This document shows, piece after piece, positions 8,325-59,337 of a DNA stretch of 64,000 bases (the stretch's first letter is position 1; each line of letters starts with the position of its first letter). The translations under genes were made by a program, and so were the position numbers. The notes under the pieces are model-generated. The model saw only the letters and a list, made by a program, of their open reading frames with translations, had not been told where the DNA came from and did not search any database. Origin of the DNA: an uncultured Acidobacteriota bacterium (GTDB lineage: Bacteria > Acidobacteriota > Terriglobia > UBA7540); the NCBI GenBank assembly GCA_963804995.1, contig CAWDSK010000006.1, forward strand, positions 1,344,001 through 1,408,000, given 5' to 3'.

Positions 8325-8637
8325 TAACTCCATTTCTTTTCATCAACATAATGGCTTTACAATTATAACTAGCTTATTTTTCATAAACATCATGGGTTAG
8401 CGCAAAACTGACATTTTTTCTACATGTGTTTTCAACAACATGATGGGTTCATCCTTCATTTTTAATTCCCCCTTTTTTGCTGCACCCACTCCGGCGGATC
8501 GAACTAAGTTACTTAATTTCAAATACATAGGAGTTATGACATTTTTGCCATTTTACCGCTAAGTACTTTTGTTTTCTAATACATCATGGGTTAGAAGGTT
8601 CTTTTCGCTCGCTTCCCAGGGTTCCATTTTGCGCTCT
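8325..8637 (-). repeat. AT-rich degenerate repeat array B (5 units)
   Basis: reverse complement is colinear with 33861-34173, e.g. AGAGCGCAAAATGGAA.CCTGGGAAGCGAGCGA and GGGGGAATTAAAAATGAAGG. Confidence 0.9.
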
Positions 8638-8732
8638 CGGCGAAAAAGAGATTCACCACTGAGGTCACAGAGAACACAGAGAAACAGCCTCCTGTTTCGC
8701 CCCATTTCACCAGGGCGCTTCCGTCCCCTACA

Positions 8733-8827
8733 ATGGTAACATTTCTCGAATGGGTAATGTCAAGACAAGAACTTACGATTTGGGCTACCGGTAGCCCAAA
8801 AATGCGAGCCAGGCAGCTAATTGTCCG
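8733..8827 (-). promoter_or_regulatory. palindrome plus promoter module B
   Basis: GGACAATTAG; GGGCTACCGGTAGCCC at 8782-8797; 18 bp; TTGACA at 8763-8758; 19 bp; TACCAT preceded by TG. Confidence 0.75.
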
Positions 8828-8878
8828 AGAATTTTACTGTGGTGGAAAGCCCACAGAAAGCAAAATGTATGCCCCGCC

Positions 8879-9440
8879 CTACGACCCCCTCCTGCCCCCA
8901 AGCAGGCGTTCGAAGTCTGTCTTTAGCCCGCTTACCAATTCTTCATTCACCGAGCCGCACAGGGGCACAGGATCACCCGAATTCCTCTGGAGGTAGAGCA
9001 CATACTGCGGATAGCTGACCCTCCCGGTGGGGTAAGATTCCACTTTTACGTTGAAGCCTTGAATTTCCGACCAGGGAATGACGAATTCCGGTCCGCCGCC
9101 GCGATACTTGAAGAATTGAACCTCCCCAGCGCCCTTGGGCACTTCGATGCGCGGCATGCCTCGCAAGTAGCGAATCAGGATGTACCAAAGCAGCACCGCG
9201 AAGATCCCAGTGGCATATTTGGCGTAGGTGTAGAACAGTCCTCCGTGCGGGTTGGGAAACCCATACCAGGCAAGAAAGGACAGGCCGCCGCCACCGACCA
9301 CCAGGATAAAGAGCGACGAAGAAGTACTCGCCGGGATCGAGCCGGATGACCATGCGATCCTCCAGCCGCCGCACCTGAAGGCTATTGTCGCTGCCCATCA
9401 GCCCGACATACGGTTTGGGAAGGGTTGTGATCACGGGCAT
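8879..9440 (-). CDS. hypothetical membrane protein split by a +1 frameshift near 9309
   Basis: ORF 9440-> (MPVITTLPK...FFVAL) joins ORF ->8879 (ILVVGGGGLSFLAW...) if one T is removed from gctctttatc; two hydrophobic helices. Confidence 0.55.
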
Positions 9441-9709
9441 GGATCTGCCAGGAACTTCAAGTTTCGAGCGGGCAGGATACCACACCCCCCAAGTCAGGTG
9501 TATGGCTTGGATTGTCCTTCAGGCAGGAGTCGCCAATGCTGGGAGCGTGCACGCGAAGAGCCCCGACCTGCGCGCCTCTTCCGGCAGTCCGTTCACGAGG
9601 CGGGCGGGGGCCACCTGGGAGTTCTGACCTTTACGTTTTGCGTTTGGCGATTTGACCTGTGCGTGAGGCCGAGCGCCGCTCGGCCCTACGCCACGATCGC
9701 AATGTGAGC

Positions 9710-10613
9710 CTAGAGGGCAGCGCTCTTTGACAGCAGCCCCAAACCGGCCATCACCTTTTCCAGCTTGGCGCGGTTTTCAGGTCTCATAGGGACCATGGGC
9801 AGGCGGTAAACTTCCTCGATCATGCCCAGCATGGCAAGCGCGGCCTTGACGGGAATGGGGTTGGTCTCGATAAAGTTCACCTGCATCAGGGGGAGCAGTT
9901 GCGCGTTCAGCTTGCGGGCTTCGTCGTATTTGCCATCCAGCGCCAGGTGGGTGAGCCGCACCATGGGCCCGGGGATTTCGTTCGAGACGACGGAGATGAT
10001 GCCCGCACCGCCTACGGCTACGAGCGGCAAAGTGAAAGCGTCATCACCCGAAAGCACCAGGAATCCCGGCTCGAACGGCGTTCAGCACTTCCATCTGCTG
10101 CACGATGCTTCCGGAGGCTTCTTTGATTCCGATGATATTGGGAATTTTCGAAAGCCGCCCGACCGTGGCCGGTTCAATGTTCGACGCCGTGCGCCCCGGC
10201 ACGTTGTAAAGAATCACAGGCAGGGAAGTCAATTCCGCGATGGCCTTGAAATGCTGGTAGAGACCTTCCTGCGTCGGTTTGTTGTAATAAGGCGCAACGG
10301 AAAGGAGAGCCTGCACGCCCAATCCTTTGACTTCGCGCGCCAAATCGCAAACCTTCTTCGTGTTGTTGCCACCCACTCCAGGAATGATGGGGACTTTCCC
10401 GCCGGCTTCTTCCAGCACGACGCGGATCACACCCAGGTATTCACCGTCCTCGAGCGTGGGGGTTTCGCCGGTCGTGCCGCAGGGGACCAGGAAATCGATT
10501 CCTTCGCGAAGCTGAAACTGTACGAGCCGCCGCAGCGCCGGTTCATCCACGGAACCGTCTTTGCGAAAAGGCGTGACGAGTGCCGTACCACATCCACGAA
10601 TTGCGAGACTCAT
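9710..10613 (-). CDS. dapA: 4-hydroxy-tetrahydrodipicolinate synthase, +1 frameshift near 10074
   Basis: GTTGE, LYNVPGRT, IKEASG in one frame; LSGDD, ETNPIPVKAAL in the next; gccgt(t)cgagccg junction. Confidence 0.9.
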
Positions 10614-10630
10614 GAGATGACCTCCAAGAC

Positions 10631-11338
10631 CTAGCTGCCTGCTCCTAGCTCCAAGATTTCCGCGAAACTGTAGAACCCCTTCTTGCCCACCACCCAGCGT
10701 GCTGCGTAAAGCGCGCCCTCGGCAAAACCCTGGCGGCCACGCGCCGTGTGGCGAAGAACGACCGTATCCGCCTCCGAGTCAAAACCCAGCTCATGGGTGC
10801 CGGGAATGTAACCGGCGCGCACACTGGCCACAGGGATATCGCGGTCCGCAAAGTAAGGCTGGATCTGCCGAGCAACTTCGAGCGCCGTGCCCGACGGGGC
10901 GTCCTTCTTCATCTTGTGATGAGACTCGGTGAGGAAGGGATCGTACATGGGGAAGGGCGCGAAGATTTGCGCGGCCGCGCGCGCCAGGCGGTAGAACAAG
11001 TTCACACCGATGGAAAAATTGGGGGCATACACCATGCCGACGCCCGCCTGCTCAATCACCTTGCGGACCTCCGCCTGGTGCTTGTGCCAGCCGGTGGTGC
11101 CGACCACCAGGTTCACACCCAAGGCGGCGACGCGGTGAACGTTCTCAACCACGGCGTCAGACACGGTGAAATCCACGCACACGTCGATGCCTTTGAACTT
11201 TTCGCGCGTGATGCCATGGCCTTTGGCGTTGACATCAATATCCATCACGAGACGCACTTCGAAGCCGCGCTGCGGCGCAAGTTGCGCCAGCGCCTTGCCC
11301 ATTTTCCCGTAACCGAGGATGGCGAGGTTTATCATCAT
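10631..11338 (-). CDS. dapB: 4-hydroxy-tetrahydrodipicolinate reductase
   Basis: GYGKMG, GTTG, ESHHKMKKDAPSGTA. Confidence 0.95.
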   Translation of the reverse strand: MMINLAILGYGKMGKALAQLAPQRGFEVRLVMDIDVNAKGHGITREKFKGIDVCVDFTVSDAVVENVHRVAALGVNLVVGTTGWHKHQAEVRKVIEQAGVGMVYAPNFSIGVNLFYRLARAAAQIFAPFPMYDPFLTESHHKMKKDAPSGTALEVARQIQPYFADRDIPVASVRAGYIPGTHELGFDSEADTVVLRHTARGRQGFAEGALYAARWVVGKKGFYSFAEILELGAGS

Positions 11339-11352
11339 TCACCGCCGGGGCG

Positions 11353-11897
11353 GATTCACCGCAGAGGCGCGGAGGCGCTGAGAAATGCTCTTACAGGAAT
11401 TCCCTGTTGCATTGGCTATTTCCCATGAGCTTCATCGCTACTATCGTCTCCGCCTCGTTCCGAGCCCTCATCAAAGTGATTCACAATTCTTTTGATCCCG
11501 CGTCGCAGCACGGGAACATTGAAATTGATCAACAGGCCCACCGTTAAACCCGAAAGCTTCAAATACGTCAAGAGTTGGGCCTCATGGATGGGCGCCAACG
11601 CCTCAACAGATTTGAGTTCTACGACCAGCTTGTTCTCAACCACAACGTCCAAGCGATAGCCACAGTCCAGTCGGACACCCTTGTAGGCAACTGGAAGCGA
11701 CCTCTGGCGCTCAAATCCCAGACCCGCCAAACGCAACTCGTGGCACAAACATTCTTCGTAAGCTGATTCGAGCAACCCTGGACCGAGGGTTTTGTGGATC
11801 TCTATGCAGGCCCCGATGACCCGCTCGGTCAGTTGGTTGATCTGCATGGCATCCGTTCATCTTACTTCTCAGCGCCTCAGCGCCTCTGCGGTGAATC
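11353..11897. mobile_element. inverted-repeat-bounded GxxExxY cassette between asd and dapB
   Basis: 32-bp IRs at 11353-11384 and 11866-11897 with 31/32 identity. Confidence 0.6.
11416..11847 (-). CDS. GxxExxY protein (PD-(D/E)XK-like)
   Basis: [41 protein letters not shown]. Confidence 0.92.
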
Positions 11898-12945
11898 AGC
11901 CCAAGTACCCTTCCGACTTCATCAGTTCCGCATTGAGCAGGGCTGCACCCGCGGCGCCGCGGATGGTATTGTGGCTGAGCGCGATATATTTGAACTGCAG
12001 CACCGGGCACTCACGCACCCGGCCCACCACGGTTGCCATGCCATGCTCAGCGTTCACATCGAATTTCGGCTGGGGCCGGTCCCGCTCCTCGCGCACAATA
12101 ATGGGATGCTTCGGCGCGGAAGGCAAGGCCCGTTCCTGCGGCAGGGAGCGATAGGCGCGCCAAGCCTCCAGGAGGTCCGGGATAGTGGCTTTGGTCTTGA
12201 GCGACACGGAGATGGTCTCCGTGTGACCGTCTTCCACCGGCACGCGGTTGCAATGCGCGCTGACCGCAAAGTCACCCATCTTCACCTGGCCATCCACCAA
12301 CTTGCCCAGAAGCCGGCGGGTTTCGCGCTCAACCTTTTCTTCTTCGCCGCCAATATAGGGAATGACGTTGCCCAGGATGTCGAGCGTCGGCACGCCGGGA
12401 TAGCCGGCGCCAGAAACCGCCTGCATGCTGGTCATCAAAACCTTCTCGAGCCCAAAGGTATGTTCAAGCGGCGCAAGCGACATCACCAGCCCCACGGTAG
12501 TGCAATTGGGGTTGGTGACAATCATGCCCTTCCAGCCGCGCTGCTTCCGCTGCTCTCGGACCAGCGCCAGGTGGTCCGGGTTAACGTCGGAAACCAGGAG
12601 CGGCACATCCTTCTCCATGCGGTAGTTCGAGGAATTTGAGACCACCACATGGCCGGCCTGTGCGAATTCCTTCTCCACTTCCCCCGCCACCTTGGAATCA
12701 AGCGAAGAAAAGATCAAGGGCGGGGCGCCCGCGGGCTTGCACTCGTGCACGGAGAGCTCCCGCGCGTATTTGGGCAAAGCCTCGCGCAGGCGCCAATTGC
12801 ATGCATCCGCGTAAGTTTTGCCCGCCGACCTTTCTGAGGCGGCGAGCCATTTGAGTTCGAACCAGGGATGATGCTCGAGCAGGCTCACAAACCGCTGCCC
12901 GACCATTCCCGTAGCTCCCAAAATGCCAACTTCAAGCTTCTTCAT
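11896..12945 (-). CDS. asd: aspartate-semialdehyde dehydrogenase
   Basis: GATGMVGQ, NPNCTT, SGAGYPG, HNTIRGAAG. Confidence 0.95.
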   Translation of the reverse strand: MKKLEVGILGATGMVGQRFVSLLEHHPWFELKWLAASERSAGKTYADACNWRLREALPKYARELSVHECKPAGAPPLIFSSLDSKVAGEVEKEFAQAGHVVVSNSSNYRMEKDVPLLVSDVNPDHLALVREQRKQRGWKGMIVTNPNCTTVGLVMSLAPLEHTFGLEKVLMTSMQAVSGAGYPGVPTLDILGNVIPYIGGEEEKVERETRRLLGKLVDGQVKMGDFAVSAHCNRVPVEDGHTETISVSLKTKATIPDLLEAWRAYRSLPQERALPSAPKHPIIVREERDRPQPKFDVNAEHGMATVVGRVRECPVLQFKYIALSHNTIRGAAGAALLNAELMKSEGYLG

Positions 12946-13000
12946 GACCCTCACTAGGGCGGATTGAATCCGCCTTTACCTTTCTGCCCCCGGATTATTT

Positions 13001-13126
13001 TAGCAGGCTGATGAAAAACGACGTAGCGGCGGGTTTACCCCGCCATCCGCGGTTGAAATCGTTGGCGATATGGCGGGGTAAACCCGCCGCTTCGTCGCAC
13101 CGTAAGGGTTTTTCAACAGCCTGCTA
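13001..13126. mobile_element. 126-bp MITE-like element enclosing a REP doublet
   Basis: TAGCAGGCTG(A/T)TGAAAAAC terminal IRs, 18/19 identical; internal inverted GTAGCGGCGGGTTTACCCCGCCAT pair at 13023-13093. Confidence 0.65.
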
Positions 13127-13224
13127 GATGTTGGATTCCAGTCAGCGATGCCGCGTTTAAGCGGTGGGCCATAAGAACGGATAATCAGAGAGGAAAAACC
13201 AGCTTTCCTGGATCCAAAATCAAT

Positions 13225-14214
13225 TCATGACTTCAAGTCACGGACCAAACGGCAATAGAGCTCGACCGCCGCCAGCAGGTCGGCCTTGCGCACGCACTCG
13301 CGCTCCGTATGCGCCACAGAAATCGAGCCCGGCCCCAGCAACAGCGGCCGCCCCCAATTCCCGAGCGAGGGCAAGTCAGTGGTAAACGCCACCACGTCCG
13401 TTTCGTACCCCTCGAGCTTTTCCATCAGGAGCAACGGCGTGTCGCGCACGAACTCAAATTCGCAGCGGCCTCCAATAATTTCCGTAATCCTCCGGCGCAG
13501 CGGCTCGGATTCCTCAACCATGCGGATCAGGATCTGCACGTGGGCTTCATCGGGCACGACATTGGCAGCGCGTCCTCCGGCGATCACTCCGATGTTCATC
13601 GTCGAAGGACCCAGCACCGGGCTGACCGGCAAGGTGAGCTTGCGCAAGTCTGCCAGCACATCCAGCAGCTTTTCGATGGCATTCACACCCAGATGCGGAT
13701 AGGCGGAATGCGCCATCTTCCCACGCGCCCGCAGATCCAGCCGCAGGATGCCCTTGGTTCCGATGACCAACTTGTTCTCGGTGGGCTCGCCATTGATGAT
13801 GTATCGCGCGCCCTGCGGATGCAGGTTGGCCTCGCGTGCGCCGTCGCTGACGGTCTCTTCCCCCACCAGGAAAAGCAGGGCGAAATCCGTCACGCCCTCC
13901 TGTTTCAGACGCTCTGCGGCCACTAACTGCGCAGCCACGATCCCCTTGGCATCGCACGACCCACGACCGTAAATGCATTCCGCGTCCTCGTGCGCAGGCG
14001 CGAAAGGAGGCACGGTATCCAGGTGCGTGCTCAGCACCACGTCCGGCTTCCCCCAACAGGCGAACACATTCGACCGGTCGCGCGAAACGGGCATCAATTC
14101 TGCCTGAAAACCCAGTTGCGCAAGGTAGTCCTTAACGAACCCGGCGCAAACTTTCTCGTGACCGGTGACCGATGCCATGTTGACCAGGCACTTTGTCAGT
14201 TCGAAAAGATCCAT
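13225..14214 (-). CDS. M20 family metallo-hydrolase (DapE/ArgE-like)
   Basis: STHLDTV, GRGSCDAKG, GEE, GEPT, AHT; heads the dap operon. Confidence 0.88.
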   Translation of the reverse strand: MDLFELTKCLVNMASVTGHEKVCAGFVKDYLAQLGFQAELMPVSRDRSNVFACWGKPDVVLSTHLDTVPPFAPAHEDAECIYGRGSCDAKGIVAAQLVAAERLKQEGVTDFALLFLVGEETVSDGAREANLHPQGARYIINGEPTENKLVIGTKGILRLDLRARGKMAHSAYPHLGVNAIEKLLDVLADLRKLTLPVSPVLGPSTMNIGVIAGGRAANVVPDEAHVQILIRMVEESEPLRRRITEIIGGRCEFEFVRDTPLLLMEKLEGYETDVVAFTTDLPSLGNWGRPLLLGPGSISVAHTERECVRKADLLAAVELYCRLVRDLKS

Positions 14215-14536
14215 GGGAAAGCCCAATTTAGACCGTCACCGAAGGGGGCGTGCGCTCACCGTTCGGGAACAATTCTGGGATCATGACCAACCGTAAGACG
14301 TTAGCCTACTACTGAAAACAGCGTCAAGCCCAAATCACGCGTCAAGCCCTGAGCGTGGCAGGTGGACCGTGTCCCACTTAGAACCATCTCGCTATTGCTC
14401 AATACTTAAACCAAAGCCCTGTGGAAGTGCAACCAACCCCCGCGTCGAAGCATCCCCTTAATGCTCGCATTTGGACTTGGAGAGTGCTAGAATTAGGGCT
14501 AGTGCGAGGCAATTGGGTTCCGTTGCAGGAGACCAC

Positions 14537-15076
14537 ATGCGCCGCCGGTGCCTTGTCATCCTTCTTCTCAGTCTTTCGTTCCTTCTTGTGTCTGCTCCCG
14601 TCTTCGCCCAGCGGGGGGGGACTGGTAGCGCTGCCCGGTCTCTTAGCGCTGGTCGCTCGTATGGAGGCTACGGCGGCTATGGCGGTTACGGGTATGGTGG
14701 CTACTCTTTCTACCCCACGTACAACTCGCCCCTGTCAGTCCCGCCCAACTACTGGTGGGTCAGCCCCTATCCCAGTGAAAACCCGTGCCAAGCCGGCTGC
14801 AATCCCAATTCTGGATACGAATGGGATAGCGTCGGGGCGCTAATCCTCGACACAAACCCACCTCAGGCGCGCGTTTCTCTGGATGGCACCTATGCGGGCA
14901 CCACCGACAAGCTTGGTCCCTTCCAACTTCCCGTCGGCGAGCACACCCTGCACATCGAAGCGCCGGGTTTCGAACCCTCCGACGTCATCGTCAAGTTCGA
15001 CAAACCGGGCGTCCAAAGCCTGAAGGTCGAACTGAAGCGTCTGACCGCTTTTGCCAAGCCCGCCCCACGCCAGTAG
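14537..15076 (+). CDS. secreted PEGA-domain protein
   Basis: AGGAG RBS, signal peptide, G/Y-rich linker, P.QARVSLDG.YAG...GEHTLHIEAPGF. Confidence 0.75.
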   Translation: MRRRCLVILLLSLSFLLVSAPVFAQRGGTGSAARSLSAGRSYGGYGGYGGYGYGGYSFYPTYNSPLSVPPNYWWVSPYPSENPCQAGCNPNSGYEWDSVGALILDTNPPQARVSLDGTYAGTTDKLGPFQLPVGEHTLHIEAPGFEPSDVIVKFDKPGVQSLKVELKRLTAFAKPAPRQ

Positions 15077-17899: not shown

Positions 17900-17908
17900 G
17901 ACCCACCG

Positions 17909-33599: not shown

Positions 33600-33690
33600 C
33601 AGACAATTAGACGCCCCTATTTACGATTTGGGCTACCGGAAGCCCATCTGCATATATCTTTCTTGACAATGGCCGGGTCCCTGCTAGCCT
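33600..33690 (+). promoter_or_regulatory. palindrome plus promoter module C
   Basis: AGACAATTAG; GGGCTACCGGAAGCCC at 33630-33645; 17 bp; TTGACA at 33663-33668; candidate TGcTAGCCT. Confidence 0.7.
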
Positions 33691-33860
33691 ATTAAATGGA
33701 GAATTGTGTCGTGGTGAAGTCGAGCACCCTAAAGGCACCCGGAACGCGCCGCGGAAATCGCGCCCTGCCATGCCGACGCCTTGCTGATGCGTCAAATGCA
33801 AGATGGCAACCGGCGGGAAGTCCACCCACTCACCAACCCGCTGCTGAAAATCTAATGCTC

Positions 33861-34173
33861 AGAGCGCAAAATGGAATCCTGGGAAGCGAGCGACGGGGAC
33901 CTCCTAACCCACGATATACTAGAAAACAAAGCTACTTAGGGGCGGAATGGTAGAAATGTCAAAACACCTATGTATTTGAAATCAAATAACATAGCGCGTG
34001 ACGACGGCGTGGGGGCAGCGAGAAGGGGGAATTAAAAATGAAGGTTAAACCCACGATGTTGTTGAAAACAAAGAAAGAAGGAAGTGACATTTTGACTAAT
34101 GCCACGATGTTTATGGAAAATAAGCTAGTTAGTGTTGCTAACCCACGATGTTGTTGAAAATAAAGGATTAAGT
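33861..34173 (+). repeat. AT-rich degenerate repeat array C (5 units)
   Basis: CCCACGATATACTAGAAAACAAAG, CCTATGTATTTGAAATCAAA, CCCACGATGTTGTTGAAAACAAAG, GCCACGATGTTTATGGAAAATAAG, CCCACGATGTTGTTGAAAATAAAG. Confidence 0.9.
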
Positions 34174-37404: not shown

Positions 37405-39419
37405 CCGAACTTTCGCACTTCAGGGTGTTGAGTTGGGTTAACTCGCTTCTTTTCAGTACAGGCATTGCCAAGGTCTGGCCTACAAACGCAGCATTCCAGC
37501 AGGAAAGATTTCCGGCTGGACCGTGATCCTGGGCGGTGGCTGAGTGGGGAGCACGAGCTGCAGTTCGTGCAACAGGAGCTTTTGTTCGGGTGTCGGCTCG
37601 GTGTAGCGGGGCATCACTAATCGGCGCCCATCCGTGGTCGGGAAAGACACATCGAGCATCTGCATGCCCGCCAGCTTCTCCAGCACCGCTTTCGGCGTCA
37701 GGCCCGGAGCGTGGGCCTGCAGACGCTGTTTCAGCGTCACCCACAAGCCGTACGCCAGAAAGGCAATGAGGATGTGGGCCTCGACGCGATGTTCTATTTG
37801 ATGATAAATCGGCCGAATTCCCAGCTCACTCTTCAAACACTTAAAGGCCGCTTCGATCTGCGCCAGTTGCATGTAGCGGTCCCACAACACCTCGGGATTT
37901 TCCCCCGTCAGATTGGTGCGCAACAGATAATGTCCATCGCGCCGCTCCGCTTCCTCCAACTTGCTGCGCTCGAGCCGGAACTGGAAGGTCTGGCGAGTCA
38001 CTTCTTCCTGGGCCTTGGGCACGCTGATCTTCACGAAACCGAAGGCCCGTCCGGCTTCACTCTTGGCTGCTCCGATCTTCATCAGCAACGCATCACGCGT
38101 CGGACACACGCGCCGCAAGGCCCGCAGCCTCCACAACAGCCGTGCCAGCTTGCGTCGACGGATGGCCATCTCTTTCGCCTGGCGGCCTGCGCTCTTCGCC
38201 AGCACATACAACTCGCCTTCCTCCGCGAACAGTTTCACCTCTACCGACTCGCGCACCTTCCGCCACGGCAGTTCCGTCCACTTCGCTTCGTACTGCCGGA
38301 TCTTGCCCCGTGGCGTCCCCACCAGGTAAAACATCTCCCGCCCCGGGGTGCGCATCTCCGCCAGCAGTTCTTCACTGGGAACTCCCCGATCCATCATCCA
38401 CACCCGCCGTGCCTTGCCGTACACGCTCTCGATCTTGTCCAGAAAACCGCGCAAGCTGTTCCGGTCGGAAGTATTCCCCTCCATCACTTCGTAGGCCAGC
38501 GGGAAACCTTCCGGCGTCAGCACCAGGGCGATCACCACCTGCCGACAGTCGAACCGCCCGTCCCGGCTGTAACCGTGGCGGGCTTTGGGAATCGCTTCCG
38601 CCTCTCCTTCCACATAGGTGCTGGTGAGATCGTAGAGGAGCAGATCAAAGCGCGCCGCAAAGAGGTCTTGCCACCGCAGCCGCAGGTGCTGGAACAACTC
38701 CGCCTTGTGCGCCAGTATTCGATCCAGACAACGATAGAGCCGGTCCTTCTCGGCCACCGCGAAGTTCACTGCCAGCAACTCGGCCATGGCGGTCTGATCG
38801 AACCAGTGCCGATGCACACGGAATTCGCTGCCCGGCTCGATCAACCGGTTCACCACCAGCAGCCGTAGCACCTTCTCCCACGGAACTCCCTCGCGCCCTT
38901 CCGGCAACCTCGCCTGCCAGAACTCGTCCAGCTTCAACTGGCGCCACAGCTCGCAGCCCAACCAACAGCCACCGAAGGTGCGCGGCCGCTCAACGCGCAT
39001 TTCACTCAACTTCACTTGTACGCCGTCCACAGCATCCGCAGGAAGTTCGCGGTCCTCCGGGAAGAGGCTCAGGGACGCGAGGACGCGACGGTCCTCGTCA
39101 AAAACCTCCAGCGTCTTGCGCCACGCGGATTGTTGGCTGTCGTTGATTTCGCCCAGATACAGCACCGTCCGATGCACGACCTTCGAGCGCGACACGCGCC
39201 GACTCTCGACGATGCTGAAATAACGATGTTCCTTGCCGTCCTTTTTGCGTCGATGAATCTTCAGGTGCACGCCCCAGAATGCCAGACCTTCGCGCCCCAG
39301 AAAAGAGGGTAGGTCGGGCCTACAAGCACTCTTCAACCCGCGCCCATTGAAGGCAAAGACCTTGTGCACCGCAAGCTGCCAAAATCAGCCCGGTAGCGGG
39401 TGGAAGTGCGAAAGGCAGG
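37405..39419 (-). mobile_element. IS1634-family element, copy 1
   Basis: 17-bp imperfect TIRs (CCnnnCTTTCGCACTTC); CTAA duplicated at 37401-37404 and 39420-39423. Confidence 0.9.
37480..39270 (-). CDS. IS1634-family DDE transposase
   Basis: LYDLTSTY.EG, GYSRD.R.D..QV, MDRG, IEAAFKCLKSEL.IRPIYH; probable GTG start. Confidence 0.92.
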   Translation of the reverse strand: MHLKIHRRKKDGKEHRYFSIVESRRVSRSKVVHRTVLYLGEINDSQQSAWRKTLEVFDEDRRVLASLSLFPEDRELPADAVDGVQVKLSEMRVERPRTFGGCWLGCELWRQLKLDEFWQARLPEGREGVPWEKVLRLLVVNRLIEPGSEFRVHRHWFDQTAMAELLAVNFAVAEKDRLYRCLDRILAHKAELFQHLRLRWQDLFAARFDLLLYDLTSTYVEGEAEAIPKARHGYSRDGRFDCRQVVIALVLTPEGFPLAYEVMEGNTSDRNSLRGFLDKIESVYGKARRVWMMDRGVPSEELLAEMRTPGREMFYLVGTPRGKIRQYEAKWTELPWRKVRESVEVKLFAEEGELYVLAKSAGRQAKEMAIRRRKLARLLWRLRALRRVCPTRDALLMKIGAAKSEAGRAFGFVKISVPKAQEEVTRQTFQFRLERSKLEEAERRDGHYLLRTNLTGENPEVLWDRYMQLAQIEAAFKCLKSELGIRPIYHQIEHRVEAHILIAFLAYGLWVTLKQRLQAHAPGLTPKAVLEKLAGMQMLDVSFPTTDGRRLVMPRYTEPTPEQKLLLHELQLVLPTQPPPRITVQPEIFPAGMLRL

Positions 39420-51249: not shown

Positions 51250-53264
51250 CCTGCCTTTCGCACTTCCACCCGCTACCGGGCTGATTTTGGCAGCTTGCGG
51301 TGCACAAGGTCTTTGCCTTCAATGGGCGCGGGTTGAAGAGTGCTTGTAGGCCCGACCTACCCTCTTTTCTGGGGCGCGAAGGTCTGGCATTCTGGGGCGT
51401 GCACCTGAAGATTCATCGACGCAAAAAGGACGGCAAGGAACATCGTTATTTCAGCATCGTCGAGAGTCGGCGCGTGTCGCGCTCGAAGGTCGTGCATCGG
51501 ACGGTGCTGTATCTGGGCGAAATCAACGACAGCCAACAATCCGCGTGGCGCAAGACGCTGGAGGTTTTTGACGAGGACCGTCGCGTCCTCGCGTCCCTGA
51601 GCCTCTTCCCGGAGGACCGCGAACTTCCTGCGGATGCTGTGGACGGCGTACAAGTGAAGTTGAGTGAAATGCGCGTTGAGCGGCCGCGCACCTTCGGTGG
51701 CTGTTGGTTGGGCTGCGAGCTGTGGCGCCAGTTGAAGCTGGACGAGTTCTGGCAGGCGAGGTTGCCGGAAGGGCGCGAGGGAGTTCCGTGGGAGAAGGTG
51801 CTACGGCTGCTGGTGGTGAACCGGTTGATCGAGCCGGGCAGCGAATTCCGTGTGCATCGGCACTGGTTCGATCAGACCGCCATGGCCGAGTTGCTGGCAG
51901 TGAACTTCGCGGTGGCCGAGAAGGACCGGCTCTATCGTTGTCTGGATCGAATACTGGCGCACAAGGCGGAGTTGTTCCAGCACCTGCGGCTGCGGTGGCA
52001 AGACCTCTTTGCGGCGCGCTTTGATCTGCTCCTCTACGATCTCACCAGCACCTATGTGGAAGGAGAGGCGGAAGCGATTCCCAAAGCCCGCCACGGTTAC
52101 AGCCGGGACGGGCGGTTCGACTGTCGGCAGGTGGTGATCGCCCTGGTGCTGACGCCGGAAGGTTTCCCGCTGGCCTACGAAGTGATGGAGGGGAATACTT
52201 CCGACCGGAACAGCTTGCGCGGTTTTCTGGACAAGATCGAGAGCGTGTACGGCAAGGCACGGCGGGTGTGGATGATGGATCGGGGAGTTCCCAGTGAAGA
52301 ACTGCTGGCGGAGATGCGCACCCCGGGGCGGGAGATGTTTTACCTGGTGGGGACGCCACGGGGCAAGATCCGGCAGTACGAAGCGAAGTGGACGGAACTG
52401 CCGTGGCGGAAGGTGCGCGAGTCGGTAGAGGTGAAACTGTTCGCGGAGGAAGGCGAGTTGTATGTGCTGGCGAAGAGCGCAGGCCGCCAGGCGAAAGAGA
52501 TGGCCATCCGTCGACGCAAGCTGGCACGGCTGTTGTGGAGGCTGCGGGCCTTGCGGCGCGTGTGTCCGACGCGTGATGCGTTGCTGATGAAGATCGGAGC
52601 AGCCAAGAGTGAAGCCGGACGGGCCTTCGGTTTCGTGAAGATCAGCGTGCCCAAGGCCCAGGAAGAAGTGACTCGCCAGACCTTCCAGTTCCGGCTCGAG
52701 CGCAGCAAGTTGGAGGAAGCGGAGCGGCGCGATGGACATTATCTGTTGCGCACCAATCTGACGGGGGAAAATCCCGAGGTGTTGTGGGACCGCTACATGC
52801 AACTGGCGCAGATCGAAGCGGCCTTTAAGTGTTTGAAGAGTGAGCTGGGAATTCGGCCGATTTATCATCAAATAGAACATCGCGTCGAGGCCCACATCCT
52901 CATTGCCTTTCTGGCGTACGGCTTGTGGGTGACGCTGAAACAGCGTCTGCAGGCCCACGCTCCGGGCCTGACGCCGAAAGCGGTGCTGGAGAAGCTGGCG
53001 GGCATGCAGATGCTCGATGTGTCTTTCCCGACCACGGATGGGCGCCGATTAGTGATGCCCCGCTACACCGAGCCGACACCCGAACAAAAGCTCCTGTTGC
53101 ACGAACTGCAGCTCGTGCTCCCCACTCAGCCACCGCCCACGATCACGGTCCAGCCGGAAATCTTTCCTGCTGGAATGCTGCGTTTGTAGGCCAGACCTTG
53201 GCAATGCCTGTACTGAAAAGAAGCGAGTTAACCCAACTCAACACCCTGAAGTGCGAAAGTTCGG
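51250..53264 (+). mobile_element. IS1634-family element, copy 2
   Basis: same TIRs and length (2015 bp) as copy 1; CTAC duplicated at 51246-51249 and 53265-53268. Confidence 0.9.
51399..53189 (+). CDS. IS1634-family DDE transposase
   Basis: protein matches copy 1 except PPPT versus PPPR near the C-terminus. Confidence 0.92.
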   Translation: MHLKIHRRKKDGKEHRYFSIVESRRVSRSKVVHRTVLYLGEINDSQQSAWRKTLEVFDEDRRVLASLSLFPEDRELPADAVDGVQVKLSEMRVERPRTFGGCWLGCELWRQLKLDEFWQARLPEGREGVPWEKVLRLLVVNRLIEPGSEFRVHRHWFDQTAMAELLAVNFAVAEKDRLYRCLDRILAHKAELFQHLRLRWQDLFAARFDLLLYDLTSTYVEGEAEAIPKARHGYSRDGRFDCRQVVIALVLTPEGFPLAYEVMEGNTSDRNSLRGFLDKIESVYGKARRVWMMDRGVPSEELLAEMRTPGREMFYLVGTPRGKIRQYEAKWTELPWRKVRESVEVKLFAEEGELYVLAKSAGRQAKEMAIRRRKLARLLWRLRALRRVCPTRDALLMKIGAAKSEAGRAFGFVKISVPKAQEEVTRQTFQFRLERSKLEEAERRDGHYLLRTNLTGENPEVLWDRYMQLAQIEAAFKCLKSELGIRPIYHQIEHRVEAHILIAFLAYGLWVTLKQRLQAHAPGLTPKAVLEKLAGMQMLDVSFPTTDGRRLVMPRYTEPTPEQKLLLHELQLVLPTQPPPTITVQPEIFPAGMLRL

Positions 53265-53380
53265 CTACCAAAAGGCCCGTAGCACTGGGCCCGCAAGGTA
53301 GCACAGGCACTCCTGCCTGTGAATGCGGCTCGATGTTCGAGCATATCGACACAGCCAGGAGTGGCTGTCCCACTTTACTC

Positions 53381-53474
53381 GGACAATTCGTTGCCCGCCT
53401 TGCATTTTTGGGCTACCGGTAGCCCTAACGTGCACATTGCCTATTGACATAGCCTAGTGGATGAAGCGCACAAT
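53381..53474 (+). promoter_or_regulatory. palindrome plus promoter module D
   Basis: GGACAATT; GGGCTACCGGTAGCCC at 53410-53425; 18 bp; TTGACA at 53444-53449; 19 bp; CACAAT. Confidence 0.7.
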
Positions 53475-53829
53475 GGAGGTAGGGAAGCGTAGCGCCCTGA
53501 TGTGTCCAGGTACCCCTTTCTACCGAACAACCACGGGGCCCAAAATGGGGGGTCTGCAATGCTTCACGAACACGCCGACAAACGTCCGGGAAGGGGGGTT
53601 CTGTCAAAAGTTTTATGAAAGGTAATGAAGGGTCGGGAGGTGGGTAGAGCTGGGGGATTTGCCCCCAGACCCCCAGGATTTATCGCTTTGGTGCCAAGAT
53701 GGGTCTGGACTGGGGGAGCGAGTGGGGCTCGCTCCCGACCGATCTCGGCCCCGGGGTCGGCGCTCAGGTCGCATCCCTGCGGAGCCCTATCCTCCGCCCC
53801 GGCCACCGCGAAGTTTACTCCCACCGGGC

Positions 53830-55287
53830 TCAGGCCGCCAGGGCGAGAGCGAGGATCTTGTTCCACTGGCCTTGCAAGGTGGTGAGGGAACTCAACTCCG
53901 GCAAGGGGATGGGTACGCGGTAGCCCAGGGCCAGATGGGGGCGAAGGAAGTTGTAGTGGGTGACGAACAGGGTGGTGAGGGCCACGGCGCCGTTGCGCGT
54001 GGCAAAGCCGCAAGCCGGGCGGACGTGGTATTTGTAGGTGCGATTGAGACGTTCGATGAGTTGCTTGAAGGGGCGGAATTCCTTGGAGACCGCGTCGAGG
54101 TTTTCCAGGCCGATGACCTGCCGCAAGGTATGGGGAGGTTGGGAAGCGGTGCGGTGAGCGTTGAGGAAGTGTACGCCGGCCTGATAAGCGGGGTTGCCGT
54201 CGGTGATGAAACGCAGGGCCTGATCTTCGGGCAAGGTGCGCGCGGCCTCGCCCAGGGCCACGGTGGCGGCCAAGGCATCGCGCTCCGGCGCCACGTGATA
54301 GGACGTGATGCGATGTCCTTGGGGATCGAGAAAGAAGAACGTGTATGGGTGCTTCCCCGCGACGCGAATATAAGTCTCGTCGCCGGTGGCGGTGGCGCTG
54401 AGCGGGGCTTTGTAGCGGAGGTTGAAGGCGTGGCAGTAGTAAGCGGCGGCCTGGGCATAGTTGAGAACGGACTGGTAGCTGAGAGGCACGCCGAAGACTT
54501 GCCGCAGGACCTGGGCGGTCTTGCGGGCGGAGAGGGCGAAAGAGATGTGGAAGGCCAACACCAGGCCCAAGACATCGGAAGAACGATGCAGACGGGTGAG
54601 GTCGACGGTGGGCGGATCGGGAGCGGTGGGGGCCAGTTGGGCGGGTTGAAAGTGGTATTCGCGATACTGGTAACGCAGCTTGAACTGCGTGCGGCGCAGC
54701 TTCTGGAGCAACTTCTCGTTCCAGTGCAGGGCTTGCTGCTTCTGGAGATAGTGAGGACAACGCTCGCCAGGACATTTGTAGATGGTGCAATCGGCACGCT
54801 GCTTCCAGCGGAAGAGGGAGCTGCCGCAGTAGGGGCACCAGTAAGGAGTTTTCGTCGGGCGATGACAACGAGCGATTTGCGACAGCCGGCCACAGACTTT
54901 GCAGCGCAGTTGGCGGGCGTGACGGCCATCGTTGAGGTAGAGGAAGTCGCGCGGTGCGCCGCAGTGGGCACAACGACAAGTGGGAGGCAGGGGGTGGGCG
55001 CCAGAACGCTGAATCGGAGCCAACGGTCGGCGGTGCTGGCGCTGGTACTGAGCCAGCAACTGCCGCCAGTTCCAGGTGCGAGGTGCCGGAGGCGGCTGGG
55101 TCAAGGGAGCCAGAGGGTCAACGTAGAAGTCGCGATAGTGTGGATGCTGCTGGCGAAAGTCGTCGCGGGGTTGAGGCTCGGGCTGGCGCCCGGCGAGAAT
55201 CTCTTGCAGTTGCTCAACCAGTTCCTGCAAATCCTGGCGGGTAAATTTCCTACAGAGCCAAAGCACCAATCGTGGTATCTTGCCCAT
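53830..55287 (-). CDS. DDE transposase with N-terminal CxxC zinc fingers (IS6/IS240-like core)
   Basis: CAHCG, CKVC, CPYCG; GDETY, ITDGNPAY, IERLNRTYK, HYNFLRPH. Confidence 0.85.
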   Translation of the reverse strand: MGKIPRLVLWLCRKFTRQDLQELVEQLQEILAGRQPEPQPRDDFRQQHPHYRDFYVDPLAPLTQPPPAPRTWNWRQLLAQYQRQHRRPLAPIQRSGAHPLPPTCRCAHCGAPRDFLYLNDGRHARQLRCKVCGRLSQIARCHRPTKTPYWCPYCGSSLFRWKQRADCTIYKCPGERCPHYLQKQQALHWNEKLLQKLRRTQFKLRYQYREYHFQPAQLAPTAPDPPTVDLTRLHRSSDVLGLVLAFHISFALSARKTAQVLRQVFGVPLSYQSVLNYAQAAAYYCHAFNLRYKAPLSATATGDETYIRVAGKHPYTFFFLDPQGHRITSYHVAPERDALAATVALGEAARTLPEDQALRFITDGNPAYQAGVHFLNAHRTASQPPHTLRQVIGLENLDAVSKEFRPFKQLIERLNRTYKYHVRPACGFATRNGAVALTTLFVTHYNFLRPHLALGYRVPIPLPELSSLTTLQGQWNKILALALAA

Positions 55288-55444
55288 GGCGGTGAGTCTC
55301 TCGGGAACCTGGCGGGTTCCCTACAAGGTGGATTGGGAAAGAGAGACTTCACCGCCCTTTTTGTTTGCCGTCAAGCCCCACGACGCAGTTACGTCCAGGA
55401 ACTTAAGCGCGGCAACCCGACCGCACCTCACGCCAACGTCCTAG

Positions 55445-57081
55445 GAGCCTGTCGGAGATAGATTTTGGCCGCAGGAGGGATCCAGTCGCAAGATTTTCGG
55501 GGGGGGCATTGGATTGATTATTGATAGTTTTAGAAGATGTTGTAAGATGGAGTTATGGGCAAACAGTTTCGGAGTTGCGATTTAAATCAGGCGTACTTGC
55601 TCCCGCCCTCGTTGCAGGATTGGCTGCCGGAGGGTCACCTGGCGCGGTTCGTGGCGGAGGTGGTGGAAGCCTTAGACCTGTCGGCGATTTACGCGAAGTA
55701 CGAAGCGGGAGATGGGCGGGGGCTGGCGGCGTACGATCCGCGGATGATGGTCCGGGTGCTGATTTACGGTTACTGCCGAGGGGTGGCGAGTTCGCGACGG
55801 ATCGAGCGGGCGACGTACGAGGACGTGGCGTTCCGGTATTTGGCGGCCGACCAGCATCCGGATCACGACACGATCGCGACCTTCCGGCAGGAGCACTTGG
55901 TGCCCTTGGCGCAATTGTTCGTGCAGGTGTTGCAGTTGTGCCAGCGGGCGGGCCTGGTGAAGCTGGGGCACGTGGCGCTGGACGGGACGAAGATCAAGGC
56001 CAACGCCTCGAAGCACAAGGCGATGAGCTACGAGCGGATGGAGAAGGCGGAGAAGGAATTAGCCGCGGAAGTGCAGGCGCTGCTGGCCGAGGCGGCACGG
56101 GTAGACGCCGAGGAAGATGGAAAATATGGGAAGGGTAAGCGCGGCGACGAACTGCCGAAGGAACTGGCGCGGCGCGAGAGCCGGTTAGAGAAGATTCGGG
56201 AGGCGAAGGCGGCACTGGAGCAAGAGGCAAAAGAGGCGGCGGAAAAGAAGCAGGCGGAGGTGGCGGCGCAATTAAAGGAGCGGGCGAAGCAGGAACGGGA
56301 ACGGGGGCGGAAGTTCGGGGGCCGACCGCCGCAGGCGCCGGACGCGGAAGCGGCGAAACCGGAGCCCCAAGCGCAACGGAATTTTACCGACCCGGATTCG
56401 CGCATCATGAAGGACGGAGCGACGAAAGAGTTTGTGCAAGCCTATAACGCCCAGGCGGCGGTGGACAGTCACGCGCAAGTGATCGTGGGGGCGGCGGTGA
56501 CGCAGGAAGCCAACGACAAGAAGCAGTTGGTACCGATGCTGAAGGAAGTGAAAGCGCAGATGGGGCGACCGCCGCGGCAAGCGACGGCGGACAACGGGTA
56601 TTTCAGCGAGCCCAACGTCACCGATGCGCAGGTGCGGGAGATCGATCTGTTCGTAGCGCCGGACGCTCAGAAGCACAGCGAGAAACCGCCCGTCACGACC
56701 GGGCCTCCGCCCTCCGGGGCCAGCGTGGCCGAGCAGATGCGGCACAAGCTGCGCACGGCGGAAGGACAGGCGGTTTATAAACTGCGCAAGGCGGTGGTGG
56801 AACCGGTCTTTGGACAGATCAAAGAGGCGCGCGGGTTTCGGAGATTCCTGCTGCGAGGACTGAGGAAAGTGCAGGCGGAATGGCAGATGATCTGTGCCAC
56901 GCACAACCTGTTGAAACTCTTCCGCTCGGGATGGAGCCCCCAAAGGGCCTGAAAGCGCTGGCCCAACCGACCCCGTTGCTCGCGTGGACGGCCTGGCCAG
57001 CGTCAAATGCCTAACATTCGGTTCGCGGAGAACGAGAGTCGGTAAAAAGTAAGATTGTGGGGCCGTATCTCCGACGGGCTC
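55445..57081 (+). mobile_element. IS1182-family element
   Basis: TIR GAGCC(T/C)GTCGGAGATA 15/16; CTAG duplicated at 55441-55444 and 57082-57085. Confidence 0.92.
55555..56952 (+). CDS. IS1182-family transposase
   Basis: LLPPSL.DWLPEGHLA, SSRRIE, DGTKIKANAS, TDPDSRIM, ADNGY, VEPVFGQIK. Confidence 0.95.
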   Translation: MGKQFRSCDLNQAYLLPPSLQDWLPEGHLARFVAEVVEALDLSAIYAKYEAGDGRGLAAYDPRMMVRVLIYGYCRGVASSRRIERATYEDVAFRYLAADQHPDHDTIATFRQEHLVPLAQLFVQVLQLCQRAGLVKLGHVALDGTKIKANASKHKAMSYERMEKAEKELAAEVQALLAEAARVDAEEDGKYGKGKRGDELPKELARRESRLEKIREAKAALEQEAKEAAEKKQAEVAAQLKERAKQERERGRKFGGRPPQAPDAEAAKPEPQAQRNFTDPDSRIMKDGATKEFVQAYNAQAAVDSHAQVIVGAAVTQEANDKKQLVPMLKEVKAQMGRPPRQATADNGYFSEPNVTDAQVREIDLFVAPDAQKHSEKPPVTTGPPPSGASVAEQMRHKLRTAEGQAVYKLRKAVVEPVFGQIKEARGFRRFLLRGLRKVQAEWQMICATHNLLKLFRSGWSPQRA

Positions 57082-57200
57082 CTAGTCAAGCGCACCCGGA
57101 GGGGGGAGAAAGCAGAAAATCCAGTTTCTCCCAGCAATTCAATGGGTTATCGCCTTAGGGGACAAAAATTCTTGACACAACCCACTGATCCGTAGAGATG

Positions 57201-57862
57201 TTAAAAATGAAGGTCGATCCGGGGATGTGTATGAAAACACAGGAGAGGGGACGATTTGTCAGGCTATTTTTCGATCTTTTTGCAGAAAATTCCGGAGTTT
57301 TGTGACAATGGACGGCAAACGATCGGGATTGTGGGCCGACAATGCACAGGTTATACGGAAATTCGGGGCGAATCAGCGCCGACCTTTAGAGCCCTCCCCG
57401 AACACTTCCGGTTATCGGCGGGTTGGGGCACGAACCTGAGCTCACCAATCGGCCTGGAGCTGGGCAATCCCGCACCCTCGATGGGGCATCGCAGACGGGC
57501 GGAAGGTGGTGGGTCAAATGGAGGACGTAGCGGCGAGTTTACCTTGCCCAAGGGGGGCGTCCCGATAGGATCGAGATCGATTCCGCCCCGTGGGCATCAT
57601 GTTGGCTCACGACCCTATCCCACGATGTTTCAGATAACAAAAGGAGTTAGCGAAGAGGAGCAAAAACTCGCAAAATGCAACTCATTGAAACCACAACAGT
57701 AATGAAATTGGCTGAAGTTTACGCACGCCGGTATCCCACGATGTTATAGAAAGCAAAGGGGGTTAGTGATGGGGAGAAGAAACCCGGCAAATATCTATCT
57801 AATTGAAAAAAGGGGAGTTAATTGATTTGCTGCCAATGGGGCGACGGAAAAAGGGGGAATTA
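57201..57862 (+). repeat. AT-rich degenerate repeat array D (one unit at 57201-57244, four at 57616-57820)
   Basis: TTAAAAATGAAGGT...GATGTGTATGAAAACACAG; TATCCCACGATGTT x2; ends AAGGGGGAATTA as seen within arrays B and C. Confidence 0.8.
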
Positions 57863-57895
57863 TTATTTGCGCCTTTCTTCCGGCGCCTTTAGATG

Positions 57896-57980
57896 TAACT
57901 ACTTTTATTTCAACTAGATAGATTTTTGCTAAAAACCCCATTTCTACCCCTAACCCCCTTTATTTTCATTAACATCTTCA
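57896..57980 (-). repeat. AT-rich array E (2 units) overlapping the stop of ORF 57950-59101
   Basis: GATGTTAATGAAAATAAAGGGGGTTAG and ATCTATCTAGTTGAAAATAAAAGTAGTTA on the minus strand. Confidence 0.8.
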
Positions 57981-59101
57981 CAAGCAGCGGGCGCTTCTGA
58001 ACCTTCTGCACGCGAAGCCTGCCGTTTAATCTTCATAAGCAGGTTCGTCAAGCGCCAGATTTGGCGAAAGTAGGAGTCTTCCATTCTCTGCATGACCATT
58101 GCAGAGAGATGGGTAGGCGCGATTTCTGCGGCACGTTCATAAGGCGAGGGACCTTTCACGCACTCCCGCAGATTGGCAAGGCGCTCCATCTCGCACAACT
58201 CCACCTGACGCGTCAGGATGTGCTGCAGAAGTTGGCGCACCCGCTCCCGAGATTCCCATTCCTCCTCCGTAATCTGGGGATAATCGGCCTGCCTTGTATC
58301 GGCGGCCTGCAAATCGGCACTTGCCTCTGTAGCGCCGACCTTGAGGTCGGCACTTACCGGATCGAAGTCCGCCGGCACGTCGCCTTCCTCGTCCGGCGGG
58401 GTTTCCGGCTCCAACCCGAAGCCCCGTTGCCTTTCTTCCTCCCGGGTGAAGGGGGGCAAATTAAAGATGGCTCGGGCCTGAGTCACGACTCGGCGGGCGT
58501 TCTCAAGCTCATCCTCCACTTCACCCGCTTCTTCCGATTCCACAGCCCCCGGCGCCTGAAGCTGGCAGAAGAGTGCGAGAGCGATTTCGCCCAATTCCTT
58601 CATGGCTCCCTCGCGGCGCAAGTTCTTCATTTGCTCGAGGTCTTCGGGCGTGGTGACGTAATATTCCTGTGCCACCGATTGGGCGAGCATCTGCAAAACG
58701 GCGGAATTCATTTTCAGATTCATCATGTGCGCGTGCAGGCGGGCCTCCCGGCCGCGGTTTGCCTCCTGCGCCTGCCGCACGGCCATGCCCTCCTGCATGC
58801 GGTCAAAACGCTTCATCCGCCACAGGGCCCGCGCCAGACGCTCCACCAATTCTTCCTCCGAACCGCTGCGGGGGCGCCACTCGCACTGGAGTTTTTCCCG
58901 CAGTTCCCGAAGGTCGGCTGAATCCTCACCCAGGTCGAGCAAGGCGGTTTCTTCCCACTGCGCGTAACGTCCATGGCGCAAGTGCGCGGCGCGGATGCGC
59001 TCCACGCCCTCCGCCGTCTTCGGGCCGTGCGAATGCTTTCGGTTGCGCCGAAGGGCGGCCAGTTTCTTGGCCGTCAGGCGCGGCTTCTTGACCAGTGACA
59101 T
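57950..59101 (-). CDS. uncharacterised helical protein, 'N..HSxGP....G' family (paralogue of 507-1460)
   Basis: GGAGG RBS; MSLVKK, RRNRKHSHGPKTAEG, LGED, P....EEELVERLARALWRMKRFDR. Confidence 0.8.
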   Translation of the reverse strand: MSLVKKPRLTAKKLAALRRNRKHSHGPKTAEGVERIRAAHLRHGRYAQWEETALLDLGEDSADLRELREKLQCEWRPRSGSEEELVERLARALWRMKRFDRMQEGMAVRQAQEANRGREARLHAHMMNLKMNSAVLQMLAQSVAQEYYVTTPEDLEQMKNLRREGAMKELGEIALALFCQLQAPGAVESEEAGEVEDELENARRVVTQARAIFNLPPFTREEERQRGFGLEPETPPDEEGDVPADFDPVSADLKVGATEASADLQAADTRQADYPQITEEEWESRERVRQLLQHILTRQVELCEMERLANLRECVKGPSPYERAAEIAPTHLSAMVMQRMEDSYFRQIWRLTNLLMKIKRQASRAEGSEAPAACEDVNENKGG

Positions 59102-59231
59102 AAAACCTCCAAGGGCGGATACGGGATACAGGATTCGCAAAGGGCGCTCGCTGCCTATCCCGACTTGTCGGGACTCGCAAAAGGCGCTCGCTGCCTAGAC
59201 CTTACTGCTTCTCCCCAACCCCCCAGTACCC

Positions 59232-59337
59232 AGTTTAACATTTACTTTAGGGGTATCTGCAAGTGGAAGATTTACGAGTTGGGCTACCGGTAGCCCAAAC
59301 GGGCAAAAATCTTTTGGCGAGGGCGTCTAATTGCCCG
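59232..59337 (-). promoter_or_regulatory. palindrome plus promoter module E
   Basis: GGGCAATTAG; GGGCTACCGGTAGCCC at 59281-59296; 18 bp; TTGCAG; 19 bp; TAAACT preceded by TG. Confidence 0.7.

Follow-up and report, generated by a model that had tools for sequence, protein, structure and literature searches.

The 64,000-nucleotide stretch analysed here (the window; positions 1,344,001 to 1,408,000 of contig CAWDSK010000006.1, assembly GCA_963804995.1, from an uncultured Acidobacteriota bacterium of the Terriglobia) carries copies A to E of a dispersed cassette. Typically, a palindrome and promoter (the head) point at a gene for an all-helical protein, or at what is left of it, followed by a block of oriented repeat units (the tail). 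The cassette is real, and a literature search, with most subscription journals outside it, returned no description of it. The interpretation favoured here, which is given about an even chance, is that the cassette combines a protein resembling the small terminase (TerS) of phages with a packaging (pac)-like site, in which a left and a right arm flank a cleavable centre that would be cut by the terminase of a helper. Its anatomy, copy number, insertion polymorphism, gene-motif coupling, the purifying selection on its gene, and one reciprocal rearrangement are matters of observation.

The heads share a constant layout. All four palindromes of the window (at 8782, 33630, 53410, and 59281) were confirmed, each with a GRCAATT box about 25–40 bp upstream and, 17–18 bp downstream, a −35 hexamer, which is TTGACA in copies B, C, and D, and TTGCAG in copy E; an earlier note on this DNA had placed these elements correctly. 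The whole 7.55-Mb source genome (G000, in which the window is G000:C6:1344001-1408000) contains 73 palindrome matches at two mismatches or fewer, of which five, without box or −35, were discarded, leaving 68 oriented heads. The box is present in 56 of these 68, while TTGAC stands 16–19 bp past the palindrome in 49, and TTGCA or TTGCG in ten. At least one sense unit lies within 3.5 kb downstream of 58 of the 68 heads, versus 5.7% of 5000 random positions, and at least three do so for 45 heads (1.3% of the random positions), so that the enrichment upstream of repeat arrays expected in the earlier note holds genome-wide. Units are antisense in three heads and upstream of the palindrome in two. 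The 68 heads are not fully independent, because two of them share one cassette and four stand in tandem.

The palindrome itself is nearly invariant (mean pairwise distance of 0.024 over 63 heads), whereas about every second position varies in its flanks, and its centre lies near −61, a usual position for an activator. Flanks are less correlated across the palindrome (0.2–0.46) than within either side (0.49–0.65), and in 13 of the 68 heads the downstream flank is a mirror image of an upstream type. Palindrome variants precede several relatives' genes; a genus-wide operator was considered and rejected, as the exact form occurs in only 2 of 24 congeners and its 10-bp core is not above control in five genomes. 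Two unusual arrangements were also seen. At G000:C2:700576 (locus L009), the palindrome is extended into a perfect 36-bp inverted repeat. At G000:C5:300717-301110, four palindromes form two tandem pairs with promoters but without a tail, upstream of a small ORF (open reading frame) of helix-turn-helix (HTH)-like type and of phage-like lysis or muramidase-like sequences; the flanks of the first pair mirror each other.

The tail, which had been described as an array of degenerate units separated by variable sequence, is in fact a fixed block of about 270 bp, with two units to the left of a centre and three to the right. The left pair is followed by a spacer ending in AAAAATGAAGG, then by the three right units. 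The unit offsets are constant (about 0, +58, +143, +194, and +235), and copies share, by subfamily, the DNA that lies between the units. Units are non-palindromic and all run in one direction; in each, the 5' half varies, and the other half, TGAAAA-n-AAA-n-TTA, is invariant. Judged by the identity of their 5' halves (0.73 within a cassette vs. 0.53 between cassettes, with a permutation maximum of 0.66, for 11 tails of relatives), the units within a cassette evolve in concert. The core unit is found in 23 of the 29 genus genomes, and its expanded variants are species-specific. A second tail type, with two units, follows the gene of copy A and occurs 24 times in the genome without palindrome. 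The earlier note had proposed, as an alternative, that the units are clustered sites for integration host factor (IHF). By eye, the invariant 3' half does partly resemble the consensus WATCAANNNNTTR, but the likeness is confined to that half, and the coupled gene, the element-specific 5' halves, and the central break are left unexplained.

Copies D and E are fused through their tails. Copy D, on the plus strand, begins with a head at 53381..53449 (box, palindrome 53410–53425, and TTGACA). It is interrupted by an IS6-family insertion sequence (IS) on the minus strand (53596..57183), in which an IS1182 element is nested on the plus strand (55441..57085), with CTAG at both sides; once these are removed, the head reaches its units, as had been noted earlier. 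Next, at 57184..57270, comes what remains of the 3' end of a short-subtype gene, containing one core unit (AAAAATGAAGG at 57203), and the left arm of the tail, with its unit pair duplicated, runs from 57617 to 57862 and stops at the centre. Copy E, on the minus strand, has its head at 59257..59336 (GGGCAATT box, palindrome 59281–59296, and TTGCAG), a gene at 57950..59101 encoding 383 all-helical residues, with a probably TerS-like core and a helical insertion, and a left arm at 57863..57982, the first unit of which overlaps the last codons of the gene; that this ORF ends inside the first unit had been seen correctly. Both D and E thus possess an array, as claimed before, but each holds only the left half of the block, and the two halves are joined head-to-head at 57862/57863.

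The reciprocal right-right junction lies at G000:C5:473590, just upstream of leuC, where two right arms are joined back-to-back, one of them of a subtype otherwise known only from a twin copy of E. Both breaks fall within 2–3 bases of one aligned position, just before AAAAATGAAGG, in two non-identical tails, and the joining is antiparallel, at a near-symmetric AT core. The gene beside E (at 59414; FG-GAP) stands back-to-back with leuC, with a gap of 130–150 bp, in congeners G015, G007, and G043 (3 of the 12 loci examined), and the two genes are now on different contigs in the source genome. Given this synteny and the subtype of the C5 right arm, the window and C5 junctions are, as read from the sequence, the two ends of one rearrangement broken at two tail centres. 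An assembly error at the D/E junction is unlikely, because the collapse of repeats would be expected to join left arms to right arms; the public contigs examined do not span the junction. An IS1-like transposon with a second ORF lies between the displaced right arm and leuC (G000:C5:473900-476250). The earlier note missed both this reciprocal fusion at the block centre and the small-terminase traits of the protein.

The protein belongs to a large superfamily, for which 17,777 clusters (at 50% identity) were found by profile at E 0.001 in Acidobacteriota, Planctomycetota, Alphaproteobacteria, and others. Its wider consensus is ANRxNAxKSTGP..GK..S..NA.KHG, followed by WRLxR and RYE helices. The protein of copy E aligns with the superfamily over residues 9–115 (hhalign, 99.3%) and is homologous to that of copy A at 507-1460 (phmmer, E 2.4e-7), as previously suggested from the sequence; two related units follow the latter gene. 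The predicted models are all-helical, with predicted local distance difference test (pLDDT) values of 82 and 87. The ESM Atlas yielded only unnamed Acidobacteriota clusters, without a named match, and Foldseek gave no match at E 0.001 for either model. A VIA fold search reached Z 8–11, the matches being generic helical bundles and hairpins; such matches are evidence neither for nor against a fold. Sequence matches to transcription activator-like (TAL) repeats in the PDB were dismissed as an artefact, since no one stretch passes by itself and they fall where the profile is gappy. The tyrosine of the RYE motif (92% conserved among 112 relatives) was likewise rejected as an essential catalytic residue, because the E subtype carries Met at this position. 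Using tblastn against named phages and plasmids, one Planctomyces plasmid gene was the only match, and searches of viral contigs with Terriglobia or single queries gave none.

Several traits connect this superfamily with small terminases. In viral locus L114, its N-terminal 45 residues match a gene located directly before the large terminase (TerL) and portal genes (hhalign, 98.4%); the C-terminal part of this gene matches the TerS family phrog_83 (E 0.0025), and the adjoining TerL is identified at E 1e-20. Among 108 relatives, three match PHROG TerS families weakly (E 0.0015–0.004, one of them over residues 18–154), for a total of three PHROG families matched by these relatives, and one matches an NCBIfam TerS model (E 0.004). 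With phrog_9231, 151 phylum genomes yielded one marginal match and thereby no set of TerS sequences for an alignment. Six of the top 50 viral rows returned by Foldseek are named small terminases, none significant. When residues 1–165 of P0412, a distant relative, were modelled in four copies, a head-to-tail chain was predicted through a helical hairpin and C-terminal segments, with a score of 0.77 against 0.00 for the best control (interface residues 43–164, with 1–42 not named; at least 70% of contacts agreeing between runs; pLDDT of at least 74). Of the solved pairs, 20 of 30 reached the corresponding mark, as did 1 of 23 single chains, in a calibration on two copies only, unlike the four-copy model. 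In G048 (L098:12927-15700, G048:C1), an STGP gene and its site lead straight into genes for a Mu-type DNA-binding protein and for TerL, and this cassette is isolated among housekeeping genes, outside a full prophage. TerL is near 3 of 11 further viral loci. It directly follows the gene in L114, follows it via a second gene in G048, and does not directly follow any window copy.

The association between gene and site extends beyond the genus. A motif, RAAAC[GA]AA[CG]CC, read from three other Acidobacteriota, was sought across many phyla, at 80 genome loci and 11 viral ones. By eye, its counterpart is AAAATGAAGG, which adjoins the break. Near the 3' end of the gene, it occurs in sense at 33 of 82 testable loci and in antisense at 7 of 82, versus 5 of 64 upstream, and in several of the upstream cases it lies about 30 bp before the start, in recombinase-linked copies. 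In these counts, gene and oriented motif are coupled across phyla. An in-frame NE[PAG] peptide was discarded as the selected unit; with 5 observed in 112 against 8.1 after shuffling, the motif is, therefore, a DNA feature.

Gene neighbourhoods of the relatives provide another association. Of 300 candidate ORFs, 126 had their neighbours scanned, comprising all 55 viral ones, 71 of the 139 near motif-less genes, and 0 of the 106 near motif-bearing genes. An ERF-DUF968 gene is directly upstream of, and overlaps, the family gene in 7 of the 11 viral loci and one genome locus, Rad52-DUF968 is directly upstream in two further loci, and YqaJ is upstream in one. In the conserved module (L104, L106, L107, L109-L112, L127, L173, and L191), YqaJ comes first, then ERF or Rad52 in fusion with DUF968, then the site, and last the STGP gene; its loci are near DUF5681, TerL, and methylase genes, and capsid genes seem to be lacking from the stretches covered. 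A DUF5681 island with TerL is also present in the congener G015.

Within the source genome, 11 ORFs match the superfamily profile, of which about seven are apparently full length, three are interrupted, and one is a fragment. At 45 of the 68 heads, a sense tblastn match to family ORFs was found, mostly to the 3' end, some possibly being translated unit or hairpin DNA. The gene-less copies (B, C, and D) are, therefore, by this comparison, internal deletion derivatives of gene-bearing cassettes. Copies B and C had been described as gene-less; neither has an intact gene, but both retain a 3' remnant. In copy B, on the minus strand, the head (8758..8826, with GGACAATT box, palindrome 8782–8797, and TTGACA) is followed by the last codons of the deleted gene, first unit included (8598..8645; tblastn E 1e-10 to residues 350–393 of a paralogue), and by an intact five-unit tail (8325..8597, centre at about 8463). 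In copy C, on the plus strand, the head (33602..33668, with GACAATT box, palindrome 33630–33645 with one change, and TTGACA) precedes a remnant corresponding to the C-terminal helix of the family protein (33787..33855; E 7e-22) and an intact five-unit tail (33903..34172, centre at about 34034). Copy A, on the plus strand, has by sequence a sigma70-like promoter without palindrome (TTGACA-17-TACAAT, 353..381), a 317-residue gene of the A subtype with the RYE motif kept (507..1460), and a two-unit tail with 54-bp spacing (1554..1643).

The family gene is present in 28 of 29 genus genomes and is under purifying selection (median ratio of non-synonymous to synonymous rates, dN/dS, of 0.37 for 135 pairs of 17 genes). 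Units follow the gene at most of the genus loci examined, in line with the earlier expectation for its homologues. Cassette positions are not conserved between species. A gap at 62378-62434, among the eight relatives examined, is empty in the source genome and G043, and is filled at the same position by gene-bearing cassettes in G013 and G003 and by tail-bearing relics in G005 and G023; no integrase, attachment (att) sites, or primase/replication module were found at these filled sites, nor within or next to the copies of the window. Copy E has a 98%-identical twin on C4, the likeness beginning at the palindrome. Such empty and filled sites, together with this twin, bear out the earlier suggestion of a non-canonical mobile element with gene-bearing and gene-less copies. 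Terminal inverted repeats were not evident by eye, the relatives, at about 75% identity, being too distant for fixing the element ends, and no target duplication was evident by eye at copy B. Six of seven genomic copies of the IS6-family element lie at one cassette position, some 20 bp ahead of the short subtype's AAAAATGAAGG core, and this element apparently targets the cassette specifically; its copies, with short flanking duplications, include window 53596-57183 and, in G000, C3:402015, C5:112706, C6:888614, C6:923073, and C9:175727.

If the cassette pairs a TerS-like protein with a pac-like site, as favoured here, each copy would consist of a co-regulated promoter, a TerS-like ring gene (or its remnant), and a pac-like site. 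The protein would oligomerise head-to-tail and bind the units via its N-terminal STGP/NAxKHG module, while the invariant AT-rich 3' half of the unit may act as a bending or host-factor site. The protein would have no nuclease of its own and would recruit the large terminase of a visiting phage or island, which would cut the tail centre. This cut would lead to packaging and transfer of the flanking chromosome, in the manner of lateral transduction; the free ends would be rejoined, at times wrongly, or inserted elsewhere, spreading gene-bearing and gene-less copies. The palindrome is most simply read as an operator that would switch all copies together. Since the protein resembles the DNA-recognising ring of a packaging motor, the cassettes may represent a minimal parasite of packaging, or a device for gene transfer, by which the chromosome would also be broken and rearranged.

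A number of results weigh against this interpretation. The window proteins have nothing usable in Pfam, NCBIfam, or PHROGs, and no TerS model matched them. The full-length TerS similarities are all weak, the TerS of L114 shares the N-terminal module alone with the superfamily, and the oligomer model concerns a distant relative and is of a kind in which a score may arise from any helical hairpin. In the source genome, queries for four TerL types, portal, ERF, Rad52, and YqaJ yielded no homologue; phrog_38 TerL is present in only 3 of 29 genus genomes. The strict motif is absent downstream in 49 of the 82 distant loci. The site is here 3' of the gene, whereas in known systems pac is located within terS or precedes it. 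The central break is a single event, since a scan of 28 relatives for the same strict fusion patterns gave none; its two junctions are not perfectly reciprocal, with 2–3 extra bases, and the shuffling of left and right arms across 40 tails has no clear minimum at the centre. Some of the ten ERF/Rad52-DUF968 loci are beside islands with a DUF5681 TerS candidate and TerL, and the coupling to an annealase beside another TerS candidate therefore points to a role in recombination. Packaging alone, moreover, leaves new insertion sites unexplained.

The same observations bear on other explanations. The cassettes could be non-autonomous mobile elements, with the tail centre and palindrome as crossover sites for a recombinase encoded elsewhere and the helical protein as an arm-binding architectural accessory. 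This would account for the antiparallel joining at a near-symmetric AT core, the arm-core-arm layout, the twin of E that begins at the palindrome, the weaker correlation and mirroring of flanks across the palindrome, and the empty sites in relatives. Nevertheless, no recombinase gene was seen beside the window copies. The lack of an evident target duplication at B and the junctions that are not exactly conservative also argue against it; it leaves the TerS traits unexplained, and we regard it as unlikely, though not negligible. Alternatively, the protein could be a DNA-end or recombination accessory, its ring loading at the cis motif and promoting, with an exonuclease or annealase, break repair and copy-paste of the cassette. 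The overlap with ERF-DUF968, the position after Rad52-DUF968, YqaJ in one locus, the motif 30 bp before the start at annealase-linked loci, and the concerted evolution of units would fit, but no such annealase was found in the source genome and the Terriglobia copies stand alone; this idea is improbable.

Domestication by the host is about equally improbable. The protein would then be a dominant-negative decoy against phage packaging, or an organiser of the chromosome acting at dozens of scattered sites, and the promoter palindrome a stress switch. The near-ubiquity of the gene in the genus, the selection on it, and the almost invariant palindrome (0.024 vs. about 0.5 in the flanks) agree with such a role; on the other hand, positions differ between species, variant bursts are species-specific, and most copies are decayed, attracting ISs and REP (repetitive extragenic palindromic)-like hairpins. 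Finally, a block transcribed as repeat RNA and partnering the protein, one of the earlier suggestions, is very improbable, as the promoter does point at the block, gene-less copies included, but spacers are not unique, an Rfam search gave no match, units resemble duplex protein-binding sites at fixed offsets, and in other phyla a single motif can precede the gene.

Beyond the favoured interpretation, the cassettes may exemplify a cross-phylum class of minimal selfish elements, in which a TerS-like ring gene and a universal oriented site would make dozens of chromosomal positions packaging starts for helper terminases, transferring host DNA and, without an integrase or transposase of their own, multiplying and rearranging the genome via the resulting ends. 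This proposal is possible, though we would sooner doubt it than rely on it. For the superfamily of 17,777 clusters, the analysis supplies a predicted structure, a proposed ancestry, and a DNA site. Should the cassettes prove pac-like, these soil bacteria would have their own dispersed launch points for transduction; these would serve as a gene-flow route between satellites and gene transfer agents and would also give rise to chromosome rearrangements.

Other features surround the cassettes. REP-like hairpins and short tandem repeats accumulate upstream and downstream of the copies, GTAG hairpins being present as passengers only. Many cassettes are trailed by 147-bp tandem modules with a CACACTCCCCCGCTTCGGTTATCGG box, 7-/9-mer tandem repeats, and GTAG hairpins (e.g., 1270–1960 downstream at G000:C6:1485169). 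A more distant family gene at G000:C5:735212-736159 has a single AAAACGAAGCC site, without head or five-unit tail, in a toxin-antitoxin-like region. In the window, identical copies of a 629-residue DDE transposase (37480-39369 and 51300-53189), in inverted orientation, bracket a 2236-residue PAS protein and two DUF3443 genes.

By the features tested, the cassette is not a CRISPR (clustered regularly interspaced short palindromic repeats) array, an IS, a REP, or an integron, as had been supposed. It shares the promoter-leader-repeat look of CRISPR and the dispersed intergenic position of REP. Unlike CRISPR, it has no unique spacers, and no cas gene is found among the window proteins; unlike REP, bacterial interspersed mosaic elements (BIME), and integrons, its units are not hairpins and no RAYT or IntI gene is beside the copies. 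Like ISs and miniature inverted-repeat transposable elements (MITEs), it has autonomous-looking and internally deleted copies, bursts, and empty sites, but no terminal inverted repeats were seen, and no transposase of a known class was found with Pfam, NCBIfam, or PHROG; a recombinase of DDE, HUH, serine, or tyrosine type was recognised neither by fold nor by profile. In lambda-type attP, arm sites and IHF sites surround the crossover. Two sites to the left and three to the right of a crossover point, together with AT-rich IHF-like half sites, are reminiscent of this, whereas all units run in one direction, there is no integrase, and the observed joining is antiparallel. Phage-inducible chromosomal islands (PICI), including those of Staphylococcus aureus (SaPI), which have their own TerS and pac and mediate lateral transduction, are likewise non-phage elements with a TerS-like gene and a site that a helper terminase could use (PMC12829572). 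By the features tested, the cassette does not belong to them either: genes for integrase, excisionase, and replication were not found here, nor were att sites, and the cassette differs in size (0.5–1.7 kb) and in its multi-copy state in one chromosome. In its way of working, it would come closest to the small terminase of SPP1/SF6 with its pac site, or to the TerS and pac of such a satellite. Compared with phages SPP1 and SF6, the cassettes lack a surrounding phage, are dispersed in about 60–70 copies with the site at the 3' end of the gene, and have an STGP module instead of a recognised HTH, in window proteins that match no TerS model. In SPP1, pac is organised as pacL-pacC-pacR, with repeated boxes on either side of a central cut (PMC4737164). 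The likeness to G1P of SPP1/SF6 (PMC4737164) lies in an N-terminal putative DNA-binding part, a central helical oligomerisation part, and a left-centre-right site overlapping its own gene.

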